Positions 4,992-44,404 of a stretch of DNA of 64,000 nt are shown in pieces. The notes below the pieces were generated by a model, which was not told the origin of the DNA, made no database searches, and saw only the letters and a list, made by a program, of their open reading frames with translations. The translations under genes were made by a program, and so were the position numbers. The stretch's first letter is position 1; each line of letters begins with the position of its first letter. The DNA comes from Dehalococcoidia bacterium. Its GTDB lineage: Bacteria > Chloroflexota > Dehalococcoidia > UBA6926. The stretch spans positions 160,001-224,000 of the forward strand of contig CAXXET010000004.1 of assembly GCA_963666115.2 (NCBI GenBank), given 5' to 3'.

Positions 4992-5699
4992 TCACACGGA
5001 TCCCATCCCGATCAAGAGTGCGATCACCAGCAGCGCAAGCGCAACAGTCAACGCAATGGGCAGCGCCGCTAGGCCAACGAGGAGTGCTACCCCCGAACGG
5101 ATTGGACCCAATTCATAGTTAGCCCTAATGATGTAATAGGTTAGGAAAATCGTCCAGGCTGTCGGGGCCACGCCAATTGCCGTAAGGATTCGCGGTCCCG
5201 TCGAGAAAGCCAGACTGACGCCGGCCACTTCCAGCAAGGCAGCTATGGCGATTGCCAGTATCCCAGTCATGACCGCCACGGCCGAGAGGTTGAGCAGCCC
5301 AACGTACATTGCAGACAGTTCTCCCCATCCGCGCATCAGACTCGCAACTAAGTGGAATACGACCGCAAGTACGCCTATAGATATGACGGCTATGAAGCTG
5401 ATTATGACTATCACTATCAGGCCGCCTACATTTGTGGGGAAACCGCCGCTGGGCTCCAGTGAATGTGACAGACCTCCGGAACCCGTATAGACGTTCCAAA
5501 GGAACAGCCACAGATACGAGCCGATGCACGCGGCGATCGCCCCTGCCCAAAACGGCCGCCGCTCCACAATCTCCCGCACCGTCGCCCCAGGCCGAATCAC
5601 AAGCCCCACATACCACCGCAAAAGCGTCCGCAGCCAAAACTCGCTCCGCACAGATTCTCCGGCAGCATCACTCGACGTCATCGCATCATCCCTCGCCAC
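4992..5699 (-). CDS. Yip1-family membrane protein (array member, short leader)
   Basis: Same conserved N-terminal block; HLVASLMRG; RANYEL. Confidence 0.75.
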   Translation of the reverse strand: MARDDAMTSSDAAGESVRSEFWLRTLLRWYVGLVIRPGATVREIVERRPFWAGAIAACIGSYLWLFLWNVYTGSGGLSHSLEPSGGFPTNVGGLIVIVIISFIAVISIGVLAVVFHLVASLMRGWGELSAMYVGLLNLSAVAVMTGILAIAIAALLEVAGVSLAFSTGPRILTAIGVAPTAWTIFLTYYIIRANYELGPIRSGVALLVGLAALPIALTVALALLVIALLIGMGSV

Positions 5700-9042: not shown

Positions 9043-9681
9043 CTACGTCGCGACGCCCAGCGCGATGATCAGCGCCACCCAAATGATGATGACCATGAAG
9101 ATCACAATGACGGTCACGAAAATCGAGACCAGGAATGACGCAATGCCGCTCAGCACGGCCAACAGCGTGCTCAACTGGTAGTTCTCACGAATGAGGAGAA
9201 TGCCCAAGATGGCGTACCAAATTAACACGACAATGCTGACCGCTCCGGCAATCACCGCGAACACGGACGAATCGCCTTCGCCCCTGATGAGAACGTCGAT
9301 CAGGCCCGGCACGACGGGTATTAGGCTCAGGGCCGAGAGCAGCAACAGCCCCGAAAGCATCCCGGTGTACGCTCCGACCCCGCCAAACAGCTTCGATATC
9401 AGGTGGACGATCAGGGAGGAAATGCCGGTCGCAAATGCGGCGAAACCGACGAACAGGATTGCGCCGATGATGGCGGCGACCGGCCCGATGGATATCTCCT
9501 CATCGCTGAATTGCTCAAACGTGCCGGGGTCGATCCCCAGGCCAAATCGGATGATCCCGTTCGCGATGAACACGATCAGCAGCGTCACCAGCCCAAGCCC
9601 CACCGGCCGCTCTGCCACAATCTCCCGTATCGTCTCGATGGGCCGCAGAATCAGCCCAACGTACCAGTTCAATAGCGTCAT
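9043..9681 (-). CDS. Yip1-family membrane protein (probable founder of the array)
   Basis: WYVGLILRPIETIREI, HLISKLFGG, RENYQL; GGAGG RBS before ATG 9681. Confidence 0.8.
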   Translation of the reverse strand: MTLLNWYVGLILRPIETIREIVAERPVGLGLVTLLIVFIANGIIRFGLGIDPGTFEQFSDEEISIGPVAAIIGAILFVGFAAFATGISSLIVHLISKLFGGVGAYTGMLSGLLLLSALSLIPVVPGLIDVLIRGEGDSSVFAVIAGAVSIVVLIWYAILGILLIRENYQLSTLLAVLSGIASFLVSIFVTVIVIFMVIIIWVALIIALGVAT

Positions 9682-38328: not shown

Positions 38329-40506
<2,178 letters not shown>

Positions 40507-40594
40507 CCCCAAAAGCCCCCCCCACTCACCCTGAGCGCAGTCGAAGGGCACCCCCCTCCGTCACCCCCCCCCATTCCGTCATTCCCGCCCCCCT

Positions 40595-40647
40595 CCGTCA
40601 TTCCGGCGAAGGCCGGAATCCATCCCGTGCCCCGACAGGGCCACAAC
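40595..40647 (+). repeat. 53-bp direct repeat, left of GIY-YIG gene (contains CGTCATTCCGGC-GAAG-GCCGGAAT palindrome)
   Basis: Matches 41140-41192 with 5 mismatches. Confidence 0.85.
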
Positions 40648-40672
40648 CCCCCCTACCTGCTAAAATCCCAAC

Positions 40673-40969
40673 ATGACCCAATCACGCATACCATGCGTCT
40701 ACGTCATGGCCAGCAAACCGAGAGGAACCCTGTACATCGGAACAACATCCAACCTTCCCGCCCGCGTCTGGCAGCACAAGACAAAGGCAACCGATGGATT
40801 CACGGCAAAATATGATGTCAATACCCTCGTCTGGTACGAAGTCCATGACACCATGAGCGCCGCCATCGAACGGGAGAAAGCCCTCAAGAACTGGAAACGA
40901 CTCTGGAAATTCCGCCTAATCGAAGAGATGAACCCAGAATGGCAGGACCTATACCAAACCATCCTCTAG
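40673..40969 (+). CDS. Small stand-alone GIY-YIG endonuclease
   Basis: CVYVM..TLYIGTT, RVWQH, FTAKY, AIEREKALK.W.R.WK..LIE..NP.W.DL. Confidence 0.92.
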   Translation: MTQSRIPCVYVMASKPRGTLYIGTTSNLPARVWQHKTKATDGFTAKYDVNTLVWYEVHDTMSAAIEREKALKNWKRLWKFRLIEEMNPEWQDLYQTIL

Positions 40970-40981
40970 CCCCGCCCCCCT

Positions 40982-41139
40982 CCGTCATTCCGCCATCCCT
41001 CCGTCATCCCCACCCCACCCCCGTCATCCCCACCCCACCCCCGTCATCCCCACCCCACCCCCGTCATCCCCACCCCACCCCCGTCATCCCCACCCCACCC
41101 CCGTCATTCCGCCATCCCTCCATCATCCCCACCCCCCCT
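40982..41139 (+). repeat. 20-bp tandem repeat CCGTCATCCCCACCCCACCC (5 perfect copies 41001-41100 plus variants)
   Basis: Directly visible; each unit begins with the head of the adjacent REP. Confidence 0.92.
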
Positions 41140-41192
41140 CCGTCATTCCGGCGTAGGCCGGAATCCACCCCGTGGCCCGCTAGGGCCACAAC
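41140..41192 (+). repeat. 53-bp direct repeat, right of GIY-YIG gene
   Basis: Matches 40595-40647. Confidence 0.85.
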
Positions 41193-41334
41193 ACCCTCCG
41201 TCCACCCTGAGCCCAGTCGAAGGGTGCACACCCCTCCCCCCAACCATCGTGCTATCCTAAGACAACCGTTCGCTACCAAAGAACCGAACCCAGGAGCCCA
41301 CAATGCGAGTCACTGCTAGCCTAGCGAGGCAATC

Positions 41335-42537
41335 GTGAAGGTTCACAAGACAATCCAGCGGCGAGTCTACCTGCGGCGCAACGGCCATGAGCGCCTCAAC
41401 GACGTGATGCGCAACTGTGCCGTGCTTTACAATGCCGCCCTGGACCACTGGAGGGGCGCATACAAGGCCACCCGCCACCAGGCAAAGCCCGATTCCGTCA
41501 ACTACTCCGCGCTGTCAGGGCAGCTGACCGGCGTTCGCGCGGACGACCCTCACGGATGGGGCGCATTGCACGTACAAGTCGGACGCGGAGTCATCAGGCG
41601 GATGGACAGGGCCTGCCAATCGTTCTTCCGGCGGGTCAAGGAGGGCACGAATCCGGGCTACCCGCGCTTCAAGGCCGGCGCCCGTTGGCGCACCATTGAG
41701 ATTGAGGATACGTCGCCCAATATGGTTAGACTCCTTGAAGAGCGCGGCAAGGCGTACGTCCGCGTCAAGGGCCTGCCGACGATGGAGATGCCTCCCCCAT
41801 CGGAAGAGGCCGTCGGCATCGACATGGGCGTGAACAAGCGCATGGCGCTCTCCGACGGCGGTTTCGCGCCGTTCCTGCTGCCCACACGCAGGCCGGACCT
41901 GAAGAAGAACAAGCGCCTGAAGCGCAAGATGGCGCGGCAGCGAGAGATTGCCCGGCACGGAAGGCAAAAGCGGCTGATGCCATCCAAGTCCTATAAGCAA
42001 ACCAGGCGGCAGTTGGCCGTATTGGAATACCGCGAGAAGATTCACAACCGGAACGAGGTTCACCGCGTGACGACCCACATCGTTGCCAGGTACGGCGTCA
42101 TCGCGGTGGAAGACCTCATCATCACGAACATGACGGCATCGGCGTCCGGCACGGTGGACGCGCCGGGGAAAGGAGTGTCGCGCAAACGTGGATTGAACCG
42201 CTCGATTCTCGAGCAGAGTTGGGGGCTGATGCGTCAGCAATTGTCCTACAAGGCAGAATGGGCCGGTAGAGACCTTGTTGAGGTTGCCCCCCACTACACC
42301 AGTCAGACTTGTTTGCGTTGCGGCGTCGTGGATGCCCGCTCCAGGAAAGGCGAGCAGTACGCTTGCCGGCACTGTGGATGGGAGTTCGACGCGGACGTGA
42401 ACGCGGCTGAAAATATCCGGCGAGAGGGCTTAAAAACCCTCGGACGGGAGTGTACTCCCCGTCGTGGCGGCCGGAGGAAGAACAAGGGGATACAAAATCG
42501 AAAGGCTCAACCGCCTCTCGATCCCTTCGCCACGTGA
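41335..42537 (+). CDS. tnpB: TnpB (IS200/IS605) RNA-guided endonuclease, no tnpA nearby
   Basis: LYNAAL, GYPRFK, RuvC-I GIDMG, RuvC-II AVEDL, GLNRSI..SWG, YTSQTC..C, C..CG..DADVNAA RuvC-III. Confidence 0.92.
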   Translation: MKVHKTIQRRVYLRRNGHERLNDVMRNCAVLYNAALDHWRGAYKATRHQAKPDSVNYSALSGQLTGVRADDPHGWGALHVQVGRGVIRRMDRACQSFFRRVKEGTNPGYPRFKAGARWRTIEIEDTSPNMVRLLEERGKAYVRVKGLPTMEMPPPSEEAVGIDMGVNKRMALSDGGFAPFLLPTRRPDLKKNKRLKRKMARQREIARHGRQKRLMPSKSYKQTRRQLAVLEYREKIHNRNEVHRVTTHIVARYGVIAVEDLIITNMTASASGTVDAPGKGVSRKRGLNRSILEQSWGLMRQQLSYKAEWAGRDLVEVAPHYTSQTCLRCGVVDARSRKGEQYACRHCGWEFDADVNAAENIRREGLKTLGRECTPRRGGRRKNKGIQNRKAQPPLDPFAT

Positions 42538-42587
42538 TAGCCGGGCATATCCCTGTACAAGGCAGGCAAATGCCCAGGCAGTACACC
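42440..42587 (+). ncRNA. Putative omega-RNA/tracr-like scaffold overlapping tnpB 3' end
   Basis: Hairpins CGGGAG..CTCCCCG and ATCGAAAGGC/GCCTCTCGAT (42497-42522); GCCGGGCAT (42540-42548) complementary to the repeat; position is typical for TnpB; boundaries uncertain. Confidence 0.5.
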
Positions 42588-42719
42588 TGACGAACAAGCG
42601 GGCGTTCAACGAGATGCCTGTACAAGGCAGGCAAATGCCCAGGCAGTACACCCATAACAGGCTAGGGTGGGTGCCCTACCTCTCCCGTACAAGGCACGCA
42701 AACGCCCAGGCAGGCGGTG
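42552..42719 (+). CRISPR. CRISPR-like mini-array: 3 repeats (36 bp) and 2 spacers
   Basis: CCTGTACAAGGCAGGCAAATGCCCAGGCAGTACACC identical at 42552-42587 and 42617-42652; degenerate third copy from 42684; unique spacers of 29 and 31 nt. Confidence 0.72.
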
Positions 42720-42812
42720 GCCACGACAATGCAGGGGCTCAAGACCCTAGCCGAGCGCAAGATTGAGGAGTAGTAATATCAAATTCCTGTGCGCCGCCCA
42801 GCCGAATAGCAC

Positions 42813-42838
42813 CATCATTCCCGCGCACGCGGGAATCT
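42813..42838 (+). repeat. REP-like palindrome subtype A2 (ATTCCC-N8-GGGAAT)
   Basis: Other copies 45200-45225 (+), 51924-51949 (-), 57424-57449 (-). Confidence 0.8.
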
Positions 42839-42996
42839 GGCACTCATCCATGCTGATCATCACGAACGCAGATTGGCGACAGGAAGCTCAAGCCGCACAC
42901 AAGGGTGTCCGCCGTCAAGGAATACTGGGAATTGACGACTCAGTACGAGTGTGCTATTCTCACCTCAAAAGGGAAACGACGATCTAGGGGAAGACA

Positions 42997-43512
42997 ATGG
43001 CAAAGGGACTTCTGTTTGGGCTGGCGACATTCGTGGTAATCACCGTCGTCGCATGTGGTGGCCAGGCGACTCCCACACCCATCCCCACACCCGTCCCCAC
43101 AGCATTTGTCACGACAGTGGTTGTGACCGCCACTCCAACACCGACGCACGCATCCGAACCCATAATCGCGCAAGGGCAAGGCACTGAGTTTGTCTCCACT
43201 TCCATCGTACCGCGCGGGCATTACATCGCCACAGTTGAGGTTAGGACCAATCGAGAGGCCAAGTTCAGCTTGTCTGTGGATGACTTTGGCGATCTGAAAC
43301 ACGAAATAGAAATTGCCAATTCGAGCGCCGGAGGGCTGACTCAATATGATGAAGGCAATTCAGTGTGGGAGGCAACTGCACGTTTCGACACCTGTGAGTT
43401 GCCAGACGAGAAATTAGTGTTGAGGTCAACCGGCTTGGCGTCGGACGTCGAGTGGTCGGTCACACTAATTTGGCAAAAGGCGTGCGTCACGGAGCAGTCA
43501 AATGCTCAATAG
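42997..43512 (+). CDS. Hypothetical lipoprotein
   Basis: Signal peptide with VVAC lipobox, TP-rich linker, beta-rich domain with two Cys; lower GC. Confidence 0.7.
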   Translation: MAKGLLFGLATFVVITVVACGGQATPTPIPTPVPTAFVTTVVVTATPTPTHASEPIIAQGQGTEFVSTSIVPRGHYIATVEVRTNREAKFSLSVDDFGDLKHEIEIANSSAGGLTQYDEGNSVWEATARFDTCELPDEKLVLRSTGLASDVEWSVTLIWQKACVTEQSNAQ

Positions 43513-43570
43513 TGTCTTCGTGAAGTTCCCCGGTGGCCGAAACGGGGTGCTGGATCCCCCCGCCCCCCAT

Positions 43571-43660
43571 CTACGGCAGCGGCTCAATCTTGCCCAGCGG
43601 CTCCTGCCGCGTCCTGCGTTCCCAAGCCTCGTACAGTTCTTGTTGATACAGTTCAGGCAT
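43571..43660 (-). pseudogene. DUF4160-like toxin remnant (29 aa)
   Basis: MPE fused to LYQQELYEAWERRTRQEPLGKIEPLP*; ATG overlaps DUF2442 stop. Confidence 0.65.
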
Positions 43661-43937
43661 TGGCGGGCGCGCCCTGCTCAACGAGCGCCAGTTCATCCAA
43701 GGTCTTCCCCGTGATCTCCATATAAAGCGCGTCCGCGCAAATATCGATGTCGTCGCCCCGCGCAATCGCCCGGTACTCAGTCAAGCGAACTGATTCAAAG
43801 AAAGAGCAGTCATTCCATGCGGCAAACACGCCCCTCCCCGCCATGTCGGACAGGTCAATCTCGCCGGACGCCCCATCATTGAAGCGCACCCAGATGCGGT
43901 AGCCCTCACGGGCCTCGACTGCTATCGGCTTGAGCAT
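43653..43937 (-). CDS. DUF2442-family antitoxin-like protein
   Basis: VEAREGYRIWVRFNDG..GEIDL, GVF..W, F..V, DIDICADALY. Confidence 0.85.
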   Translation of the reverse strand: MLKPIAVEAREGYRIWVRFNDGASGEIDLSDMAGRGVFAAWNDCSFFESVRLTEYRAIARGDDIDICADALYMEITGKTLDELALVEQGAPANA

Positions 43938-43981
43938 ACTTGTCCTCCACGCGCAGTATACCAACGTTGGGGGACGCGGGG

Positions 43982-44404
43982 TTAGCTGTCTATCACATCG
44001 ATGTAGCCCTCATACCGCCGAAAGTCCGCCCCATTGAAGGTCAACAGCCGCCGCTCCCCATGCGCCAACATAGTCGCCACGATGTTGGCATCGTGAATCT
44101 GGCGCCCGCCGACCGGCACATCACGACACAAGTTGAACAGGAACTCCGAGACCACCGGGCCATCCTCTAGAACATCGAGACTTCCCAGTAGCTGCCGCAT
44201 GTCATCAAGTGCCTCTGTGAGAGTCATTGCAACCGGCCATACCTGTGGTCGTGTGACGACAGCCAGATATTCCCTCATAATCTGCCGACTGATCCGCAAC
44301 GGCTCCTGCCCGTGCATGACTTGCTCCAACAACGCGCTGGCTCGCCCATGGTCCGGAGCGCCCACGATACGTGCGTTTACCCAAATGTTCGTGTCAATGA
44401 ACAT
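43982..44404 (-). CDS. vapC: PIN-domain toxin
   Basis: FIDTNI, QIMREY, IHDANIVATM, TFNGADF. Confidence 0.9.
   Translation of the reverse strand: MFIDTNIWVNARIVGAPDHGRASALLEQVMHGQEPLRISRQIMREYLAVVTRPQVWPVAMTLTEALDDMRQLLGSLDVLEDGPVVSEFLFNLCRDVPVGGRQIHDANIVATMLAHGERRLLTFNGADFRRYEGYIDVIDS

Follow-up and report, generated by a model that had tools for sequence, protein, structure and literature searches.

A TnpB-like gene with regularly spaced repeats directly behind its stop codon raises the question of whether the repeats are a guide array that belongs to the gene, and if so, whether the pair is still a working system. Such a gene was found in the 64,000-nt stretch of DNA analysed here (the window). 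We propose a miniature type V CRISPR locus of TnpB descent, with an architecture of the type known from Cas12n, V-U and TranC systems, and we give this reading a probability of about 0.72. That the array is a true CRISPR-type guide array and belongs to the neighbouring TnpB-like gene, as the earlier note had suggested, is supported by relatives in which the same geometry occurs with different spacers.

The effector gene lies at 41335..42537 on the forward strand, as do all features below. The open reading frame encodes 400 aa, with a GTG start and a TGA stop at 42535-42537, and profiles and alignment place its product among the TnpB-family or Cas12n-like RuvC nucleases. For instance, the protein matched the Pfam profiles OrfB_IS605 (E = 1.8e-11) and Cas12f1-like_TNB (E = 2.1e-23), and it scored 185.8 bits with the NCBIfam guided_TnpB model (cut-off 100). 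It fell below the curated cut-offs of three NCBIfam exception models, type V-U2 (C2c8; 102.1 bits vs 350), Cas12f2 (65.8 bits vs 450) and IS607 TnpB (100.5 bits vs 350). The three RuvC acidic residues that had been noticed before are all present, as D163, E259 and D354, and they occupy invariant columns in a 15-sequence alignment, as do the four cysteines of the CxxC...CxxC zinc finger. The best relative of solved structure is RdCas12n (9j09_A, E = 2e-30, residues 159-371). An AlphaFold2 model built with a 15-sequence alignment was poor (mean pLDDT 54), and the N-terminal 153 residues were mostly below 50.

The array begins 14 nt downstream of the stop codon. It consists of repeat 1 (42552..42587, 36 nt), an exact copy of CCTGTACAAGGCAGGCAAATGCCCAGGCAGTACACC; spacer 1 (42588..42616, 29 nt); repeat 2 (42617..42652, 36 nt), identical to repeat 1; spacer 2 (42653..42683, 31 nt); and a degenerate terminal repeat (42684..42719) with 27 of 36 positions identical. 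The identical positions of the last copy are 27 of the first 30 and none of the last 6, and its identity is 69% when a 39-nt register is used. When up to 3 mismatches were allowed, the repeat CCTGTACAAGGCAGGCAAATGCCCAGGCAGTACACC matched twice, and at least 2 matches were found in 0 of 100 shuffles, which agrees with the earlier description of two perfect copies and a degenerate third. The two spacers are likewise unrelated, as had been stated; a similarity at least as high as the observed one was reached in 305 of 500 shuffles. Only two units of the window array are usable, and a promoter and terminator scan found none near the array. A match to the Rfam family psaA in 40000-44000, the only one obtained in a scan at E up to 1, was rejected as a chance hit (17 bits vs a gathering score of 50).

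When the whole 2.07-Mb genome was searched, the 36-nt repeat was found at this locus only and is thus neither a REP element nor a dispersed repeat. The best non-self match of spacer 2 in the genome is 15 nt, and spacer 1 had no match elsewhere in the genome, nor in the phage or plasmid collections. In the search for spacer targets that the earlier note had proposed, the window array region found none: the best E values were 2 (phages) and 0.5 (plasmids), with hits mostly outside the spacers. The arrays of two relatives (L004 and L181) also had no phage match at E up to 1. Meanwhile, the absence of tnpA, cas1 and cas2, first remarked for the window, extends to the whole genome as far as Cas1 (PF01867), Cas2 (PF09827) and the Y1 transposase (PF01797) are concerned, each with 0 matches; in positive controls, the three profiles matched in 7, 6 and 6 of 14 named genomes, respectively. 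The lack of spacer targets and of a Cas1 or Cas2 that could account for spacer acquisition both speak against the proposed reading. The effector is also the sole TnpB-family gene in the genome. Candidate empty-site junctions at 40510/42815 (run X1) and 40991/42815 (run X2) were rejected, with sides of only 20-21 nt beside repeat elements.

The same anatomy was found in relatives. The sister lineage with readable DNA (L004) encodes a protein with 52% identity to the window protein; its stop lies at 5383, and six 36-nt repeats follow from 5396 with a period of 64-67 nt, the last copy being degenerate. Its repeat GCTGTACGGCGGGGGCGAACGCCCTGAGCACTCACC resembles the window repeat. In the tree, the window protein groups with L004 and 14 database proteins (SH-aLRT 99). 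In addition, gene-adjoining arrays are present in L009, L010, L018, L038, L177 (4 repeats after the gene) and L181 (29 repeats from 2 nt past the stop, with no cas genes alongside), and the array starts 2-33 nt past the stop in every array-bearing lineage examined. In a survey of the fetched relatives, an array signal was detected in 8 of 140 loci (3 borderline) vs 1 of 119 control regions. The relatives' repeats in genomes G402 and G668 are also confined to the TnpB-adjacent array. More distant relatives have 28-29-nt repeats with a 61-nt period, a geometry typical of type I-E, and Cas1 is encoded elsewhere in their genomes. Of 21 further genomes from the genus, one (G003) yielded a related protein, as a fragment at a contig end where no array was seen. 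A class-level search at E up to 1e-70 gave no match in 400 other genomes, and in a scan of a metagenome collection no relative exceeded 51% identity and the sister clade was not represented.

Homologous loci with different spacers, for which the earlier note had proposed to look, were found in two cases. L009 and L010 have near-identical genes, and their first spacers differ. Furthermore, in a contig from run X1 (249 nt, depth 14.8), 33 other letters lie between repeat 1 and the terminal repeat. We read this insert as a 31-nt spacer that resembles neither spacer 1 nor spacer 2, a variant represented by this single short contig.

Directly upstream of the array, the DNA coding for the C-terminal tail (residues 373-400, 42451..42537) is a putative guide-RNA scaffold, as judged from pLDDT and fold. 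Tail residues 371-400 have a pLDDT of 30-33 in a model that is poor overall, and the region 42400-42587 folds with z = -3.95, a stability reached by 0 of 200 shuffles. A hairpin in the tail-coding DNA, at 42443..42463, is a candidate anti-repeat or pseudoknot of a tracrRNA or omega-RNA. In the pseudoknot model, it has 6 outer pairs and a 9-nt loop, in which GTGTACT complements AGTACAC at repeat positions 29-35; when folded alone, the segment reaches -9.8 kcal/mol and gains two apical pairs that close a UGUA tetraloop. Within 200 nt upstream, the loop match is the only complement of at least 6 nt that touches the repeat 3′ end (27 of 1000 shuffles). Loops complementing the last 6-7 nt of the own repeat lie at -102 in the window, -100 in L004 and -105 in L009, and shuffles gave such a match in 27, 34 and 20 of 1000, respectively, in a search window (-115 to -90) that was set after viewing the data. 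Because the last 6 nt of the terminal repeat are changed, the loop complementarity is lost there. The linker (42538..42551, 14 nt) carries GGGCAT, which can pair with ATGCCC at positions 19-24 of repeat 1, and L004 has AGGGCGT and ACGCCCT at the same place, with one compensatory A-T to G-C change.

The tails differ in length between relatives. Beyond the NAA.NI motif, they are 28-58 aa long in array-bearing relatives and 7-31 aa in relatives without a detected array, except for L031 with 47 aa. L004 and L009 share a conserved 37-nt tail element, which lies in a different codon phase in each (z = 6.5); the nucleotide similarity between the window tail and the L004 tail is not significant (z = 0.5). 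Duplex scans of both flanks for a long anti-repeat found nothing above the GC-rich background, and in a 7 x 7 matrix of repeat and tail duplex energies own pairs were no better than cross pairs. In wider context, the minimum-energy folds of L004 and L009 take other structures, and a MAFFT scaffold alignment of the window, L004, L009 and L010 was structurally inconsistent. Nevertheless, the scaffold-like fold and the loop and linker pairing favor the earlier idea that the repeat derives from a duplicated omega-RNA end: the scaffold plausibly has the repeat as its 3′ end. Repeat 1 with about 100 nt upstream looks like a single omega-RNA-like scaffold, of which the later repeats would copy the last 36 nt only.

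On this basis, we suggest the following mechanism. The nuclease gene would be transcribed through its own 3′ end, and the tail-coding DNA, the 14-nt linker and repeat 1 would give an omega-RNA-like scaffold with spacer 1 as its guide. Since the later repeats reproduce no more than the final 36 nt of the scaffold, their crRNAs would have to pair in trans with the tail-encoded part, which would act as a tracrRNA; the predicted contacts are those of the hairpin loop GTGTACT with AGTACAC and of the linker GGGCAT with ATGCCC. The complex would then cut DNA that matches the 29-31-nt spacers beside a 5′ motif, possibly in defence. The locus is a single copy, in a genome without a Y1 transposase and in a lineage that appears to renew its spacers.

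It is a separate matter whether the window copy is still able to do this. An in-frame deletion of about 35-37 codons, with its junction at 41783..41791, removes the last WED-domain strands before RuvC-I. The segment from PTMEM to AVG has 14 residues in the window protein vs a minimum of 48 and a median of 50 across 254 aligned relatives, and the NCBIfam profile match jumps over positions 105-185. Because about 35 residues found in all 254 relatives are missing, the effector may not bind RNA or DNA. The window copy might then be an inactive relic of a CRISPR-type lineage, its binding abolished by the deletion and its two-unit array drifting, and we rate this at somewhat under even chances. A relic would also suit the long terminal branch of the window protein in the tree (0.49 vs a median of 0.1), the degenerate last repeat, the mere two spacers, the lack of adaptation genes in the genome, and a near-identical metagenome variant that appears, from a single short contig of run X3 with about 111 extra letters exactly at the deletion site, to keep the full-length WED segment. 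However, the reading frame is uninterrupted for 400 codons and retains all catalytic and zinc residues, and repeats 1 and 2 remain identical. Furthermore, one contig of run X1 spans the deletion site without extra letters, so that the deletion allele also exists at about 95% identity, and this variant retains the same degenerate terminal repeat. Over 512 nt, the window and X1 alleles are separated by 9 synonymous and 9 non-synonymous changes, giving a dN/dS of about 0.32 based on these 18 changes. Taken together, the odds that the deletion-bearing copy is still active are about even. The stronger claim, that the WED-shortened protein is a working guide-dependent effector under selection in a lineage that renews its spacers in genomes without Cas1-Cas2, seems improbable to us.

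Other explanations concern the array itself. The gene could be an ordinary TnpB of IS200/IS605 type whose right end, that is, the omega-RNA 3′ end, was tandemly duplicated by chance and has no multi-guide function. Its TnpB-like size and its passing of the guided_TnpB cut-off would agree with this, as would a repeat that is plausibly the scaffold 3′ end and the small share of relatives' loci with an array signal. Nevertheless, we consider it very improbable: the spacers are mutually unrelated and match nothing else in the genome, near-identical loci differ in their spacers, the sister lineage carries six repeats and other relatives up to 29, and the gene is single-copy in a genome without Y1 TnpA, with its one counterpart in the genus being a fragment. 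It is also conceivable that a TnpB gene landed beside an orphan CRISPR array of another system, to which it is functionally unlinked. Altae-Tran et al. 2023 (PMC10691335) leave such a route open in general, and the repeat geometry and separately encoded Cas1 of the distant relatives are in line with it. For the locus studied here it is extremely unlikely, for the array keeps its place next to the stop in every array-bearing lineage examined, the repeat changes together with the protein lineage, the upstream loop complements the own repeat end lineage by lineage, and in the window genome, G402 and G668 the repeats occur only at the TnpB-adjacent array.

The miniature type V reading can be compared with known systems. 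As far as sequence can tell, the architecture of the locus matches that of Cas12n (type V-N, formerly V-U4 or C2c9; RdCas12n, PDB 9J09, and AcCas12n), a likeness that comes from architecture and the best PDB match. Both have a TnpB-like, monomer-sized RuvC effector, an array right behind the gene, and no cas1 or cas2. The disordered C-terminal tail of Cas12n, with the tracrRNA in its coding DNA, may have a counterpart in the low-confidence tail of the window protein, whose coding DNA is proposed to carry a tracrRNA. However, the match spans only the RuvC/TNB half (residues 159-371), and Chloroflexota TnpBs in which no array was detected come closer to the window protein over its full length (41-44% identity in the eight closest). 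Cas12n proteins average 544 aa with expanded REC and WED domains, whereas the window protein has 400 aa and a shortened WED, and its predicted repeat-scaffold pairing differs in consisting of two short stretches, 7 and 6 bp long. Cas12n uses the PAM 5′-AAN.

As related in preprints that build on the original work, TranC likewise combines a TnpB-grade protein with an array, and its first unit is contiguous with an omega-RNA-like scaffold while later units need the scaffold in trans. They also describe a "functional RNA splitting" by which tracrRNA and crRNA arise from the right-end RNA and, as TnpB-sized members, TranC clade 9 with a mean of 414 aa and repeats of 38 bp. The similarity between LaTranC (9jfo) and the window protein is weak (E = 1.3e-4). 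The V-U6 to V-U45 candidate type V variants (PMC10691335) are branches of the TnpB tree in which a downstream array is conserved and further cas genes are missing, many of them from metagenomes only, and V-U arrays are there thought to arise through serial duplication of omega-RNA segments. With IS200/IS605 TnpBs such as ISDra2, the locus shares effector size, domain order, the catalytic triad and a scaffold RNA, here predicted, that overlaps the gene 3′ end and has the guide at its own 3′ end. It differs from them in the absence of Y1 TnpA from the genome, in the single-copy gene, and in several unrelated guides that are split by 36-nt repeats and differ between strains.

TnpB-sized effectors with downstream arrays and without cas1 or cas2 are already in print as Cas12n (V-U4), V-U6-45 and TranC, and the published sets may already include the Chloroflexota clade of the window. 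The novelty claimed earlier is not supported, and because the kind is already described, the label "nascent" is unsupported. In addition, with six repeats in L004 and 4 to 29 in distant relatives, the window copy, having a short array and an effector shorter by about 35 residues, looks reduced, not newborn.

The current picture of type V origins is unchanged by the locus, which adds a Chloroflexota-centred lineage to the intermediates between TnpB and Cas12. Its protein family offers a natural series from no detected array to 2-3 units, 6 units in the sister lineage and 29 in a distant one, a series within one family and not along a single line of descent. Moreover, the data hint that spacers are replaced at a locus for which the genome supplies no adaptation genes. 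If the shortened effector works and the spacers are renewed, guides would be exchanged independently of Cas1, for example by omega-RNA-end duplication or recombination, and a working core of about 370 aa plus tail would be among the smallest CRISPR-associated nucleases known. The deletion allele and its apparently full-length near-twin form a natural pair that bears on the requirement for the WED domain. The runs that hold the locus are labelled marine or sponge metagenomes.

The 36-nt repeat follows the TnpB-family ORF (41335-42537, + strand; 400 aa, with the stop codon ending at 42537) in two exact copies (42552-42587 and 42617-42652, + strand) and a degenerate third copy (42684-42719, + strand), in which 27 of the first 30 letters and 0 of the last 6 are retained. 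Two matches were found in 0 of 100 shuffled sequences, and the spacers of 29 and 31 nt resembled each other no more than shuffled sequence did. In addition, neither array period (65 or 67 nt) is a multiple of three, so the array is not a coding repeat. The repeat-spacer array that the earlier note had claimed behind tnpB is confirmed, and the finding as a whole is real.

The genome of the window (2,067,757 bases in 9 contigs, 100% complete) carries the exact repeat at these two sites only (control pattern, 0), so the repeat is not one dispersed over the genome. A k-mer scan of this genome (repeats of at least 20 nt at 45-95-nt spacing) found no other array-like structure and otherwise returned only REP-like elements of type TCCGTCATTCCGGCGAAGGCCGGAATCC. 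Furthermore, the ORF is the only TnpB-family gene in the genome, and Cas1, Cas2 and Y1 transposase had no match there, in searches that were positive in 7, 6 and 6 of 14 control genomes, respectively. The absence of tnpA and cas1/cas2 first noticed in the window thus holds genome-wide for Cas1, Cas2 and Y1 transposase.

The effector contains OrfB_IS605 and Cas12f1-like TNB domains (Pfam). It scored 185.8 bits with the NCBIfam guided_TnpB model (cut-off, 100) and fell far under the cut-offs of the NCBIfam C2c8, Cas12f2 and IS607 TnpB models. In the family alignment, its catalytic triad and zinc finger are intact. Meanwhile, the segment between PTMEM and AVGIDMG has 14 residues in the window's protein versus at least 48 (median 50) in 254 of 254 other aligned members, and the NCBIfam profile match has a gap at positions 105-185. 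By its position, the RdCas12n description and the alignment to the solved structure, the missing segment would correspond to the final strands of the WED domain, just before RuvC-I; the published description places the RdCas12n WED domain at residues 1-20 and 182-267.

Logan contigs from four metagenome sequencing runs were mapped on 40400-43600, and one run (X2) was identical to the window at every letter and may be the sample it came from. A single 216-nt contig of run X3 (depth 5.5) agrees with the window at 53 of 57 letters on one side of the deletion point and at 52 of 53 on the other, and has about 111 extra letters at this point, the size of the missing segment. A 113-nt contig of run X1 crosses the deletion point without insertion; both the short and the full allele seem to exist in nature, on one contig each. 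The X1 variant differs from the window at 18 positions in 512 nt (9 synonymous and 9 non-synonymous; dN/dS about 0.32), a weak indication that selection still acts on the short allele. The window's copy is reduced, and from the WED loss alongside intact catalytic residues, the coexisting alleles and this dN/dS value, we put the odds that it would be active at roughly even. The X3 variant also has 94 letters in place of 4 at window positions 41974-41979, which adds a net 30 codons to the helical region between RuvC-I and RuvC-II.

Run X1, which comes from a separate study, also gave a single 249-nt contig (depth 14.8) that starts in the end of the gene, crosses repeat 1 and 33 letters absent from the window, and continues into the terminal degenerate repeat. 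We read it as a two-repeat array with a single 31-nt spacer, which is unlike spacers 1 and 2 in a letter-by-letter comparison. Homologous loci with different spacers, for which the earlier note proposed to look, are thus represented by this variant, on one short contig.

The fold of 42400-42587 was stabler than 200 of 200 shuffles (z = -3.95). Within 200 nt upstream of the array, the sole complement of at least 6 nt touching the 3′ end of the repeat was GTGTACT at -102, which would pair with AGTACAC (repeat positions 29-35). A pseudoknot model puts GTGTACT in a 9-nt loop closed by the 6 outer pairs of a hairpin (42443-42463); folded alone, this hairpin has two added apical pairs and a UGUA tetraloop. 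Such matches were also found in two relatives' loci, GGTGAG at -100 versus CTCACC in L004, where the hairpin that presents it has another stem sequence, and GTTGAG at -105 versus CTCAAC in L009. Shuffled upstream sequence yields them in 27, 34 and 20 per 1000 (window, L004 and L009), for a distance window picked after the data were seen. The linker would also pair with repeat positions 19-24, and the window and L004 differ by one compensatory change in this second contact. Furthermore, L004 and L009 share a conserved 37-nt tail element that stands in a different codon phase in each (z = 6.5), which points to a constraint on nucleic acid and not on protein; the window's tail was not alignable to that of L004. 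Duplex energies between the repeat and the upstream sequence were not distinctive, and the minimum-energy folds of L004 and L009 in wider context pick other pairings. Taken together, the shared loop match, the linker contact, the fold stability and the tail element support a predicted omega-RNA-like scaffold of about 140 nt ending in repeat 1. The later repeats would be copies of the last 36 nt of this scaffold and would need trans pairing with its upstream part.

The protein database yielded 4356 relatives, the nearest just 50-54% identical. A quick maximum-likelihood tree (69 rows) placed the window's protein, on a long end branch (0.49 versus a median of 0.1), as sister (SH-aLRT 99) to a clade of database proteins P0002-P0015 and L004, of which DNA was read for L004 alone. 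The L004 ORF stops at 5383; its array starts at 5396 and comprises six 36-nt repeats that recur every 64-67 nt, the last one degenerate. This repeat, GCTGTACGGCGGGGGCGAACGCCCTGAGCACTCACC, resembles that of the window in starting with CTGTAC, in its short central hairpin and in ending with ACC, and within its genome (G402) it was found at that array only. In L009 and L010, an array with a 66-nt period stands directly behind the gene; the two genes are near-identical and the first spacers different. Arrays also stand right after the gene in L018 and L038 (61-nt period; 6 and 5 repeats) and in L177 (4 repeats). In L181, a 28-nt repeat occurs 29 times between 33-nt spacers, first at 2 nt past the stop; this array is flanked on both sides by housekeeping genes, and no cas gene adjoins it.

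A mismatch-tolerant scan gave a repeat signal just past the stop in 8 of 140 fetched loci (three borderline and five clear, the latter including a duplicate record) and in 1 of 119 control regions, and the scan undercounts, as L010 was missed. The majority of relatives look like plain TnpBs. The tail beyond the conserved NAA.NI motif measures 28-58 aa in array-bearing relatives and 7-31 aa in those without a detected array, except L031 (47 aa).

In L018, L038, L182 (genome G470) and L181 (genome G668), the repeats are 28-29 nt long with a strict 61-nt period, a geometry typical of type I-E arrays. Cas1 is present elsewhere in G668, G470 and G402, the last being the genome of L004 with its 36-nt repeat; in G668 and G402, the repeat is nevertheless confined to the side of the TnpB-like gene. 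One of the 28 L181 spacers (9498-9530) matches its own genome at L196 1501-1531 (29/31 letters, E = 1.7e-5; 30/33 by eye), within the 5′ portion of an ORF of 476 aa whose product looks like a membrane protein. Inside a 576-aa ORF of L068 (4809-5143), six tandem units of 60 nt follow one another in frame, each made up of a variable part and a core of about 28 nt that is conserved; this stretch is array-like but coding. Some relatives are broken: L071 is split into ORFs of 177 and 209 aa, and L176 and L179 have one internal TAG each.

Among solved structures, the best match was 9j09_A (E = 2e-30, residues 159-371), ahead of ISDra2 TnpB (E = 1e-20) and LaTranC (E = 1.3e-4). 9J09 is RdCas12n (preprint). 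Cas12n is described as a TnpB-like effector of 400-700 aa with a C-terminal tail that is disordered and dispensable, a tracrRNA encoded within the 3′ end of the ORF, a CRISPR array and a 5′-AAN PAM, and no adaptation genes are described in these sources (PMC12216341, PMC11641405, preprint). Altae-Tran et al. (2023) report 40 further TnpB-like branches with downstream arrays (V-U6 to V-U45), mostly without other cas genes, and propose that such arrays stem from serial duplication of omega-RNA segments. TranC systems are presented in two preprints as TnpB-to-Cas12 intermediates of TnpB size, with the right-end RNA split into tracrRNA and crRNA and arrays of 3-20 repeats of 32-38 bp. Judged from its sequence, the window's locus would work like Cas12n, V-U6-45 and TranC. 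However, the window protein lacks the expanded WED and REC of Cas12n, and in full-length comparison it is nearer to Chloroflexota TnpBs in which no array was detected (41-44% identity for the eight nearest). We therefore do not place it in Cas12n proper.

Array-bearing TnpB-like loci are thus an already published kind (Cas12n, V-U6-45 and TranC), and the locus belongs to an established lineage of this kind. The mechanism proposed earlier was largely right, in that an array of repeats derived from the omega-RNA end is supported. The word "nascent" does not hold: the lineage is established, with six repeats in L004 and up to 29 in relatives, and it is this copy that is reduced.

Within the genus, the protein matched in 1 of 21 other genomes (E ≤ 1e-20), as a fragment at a contig end, and 0 of 400 other genomes in a class sample matched it (E ≤ 1e-70). 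The upstream gene (38332-40506) is syntenic throughout the genus at 74-79% identity, and 40520-41240 consists of repeat elements dispersed over all genus genomes. The intergenic region 5′ of the gene (40518-41260) is made up of REP-like dispersed elements with copies across its own genome and the searched genus genomes; 40518-40651 recurs at 41133-41224, and 40950-41150 holds C-rich 20-nt tandem units. Forms lacking the whole locus could be marked by read joints at 40510/42815 and 40991/42815, whose sides measure just 20-21 nt. About 90 nt 3′ of the array, a further hairpin-type repeat element, TTCCCGCG..CGCGGGAA, is located at 42800-42850.
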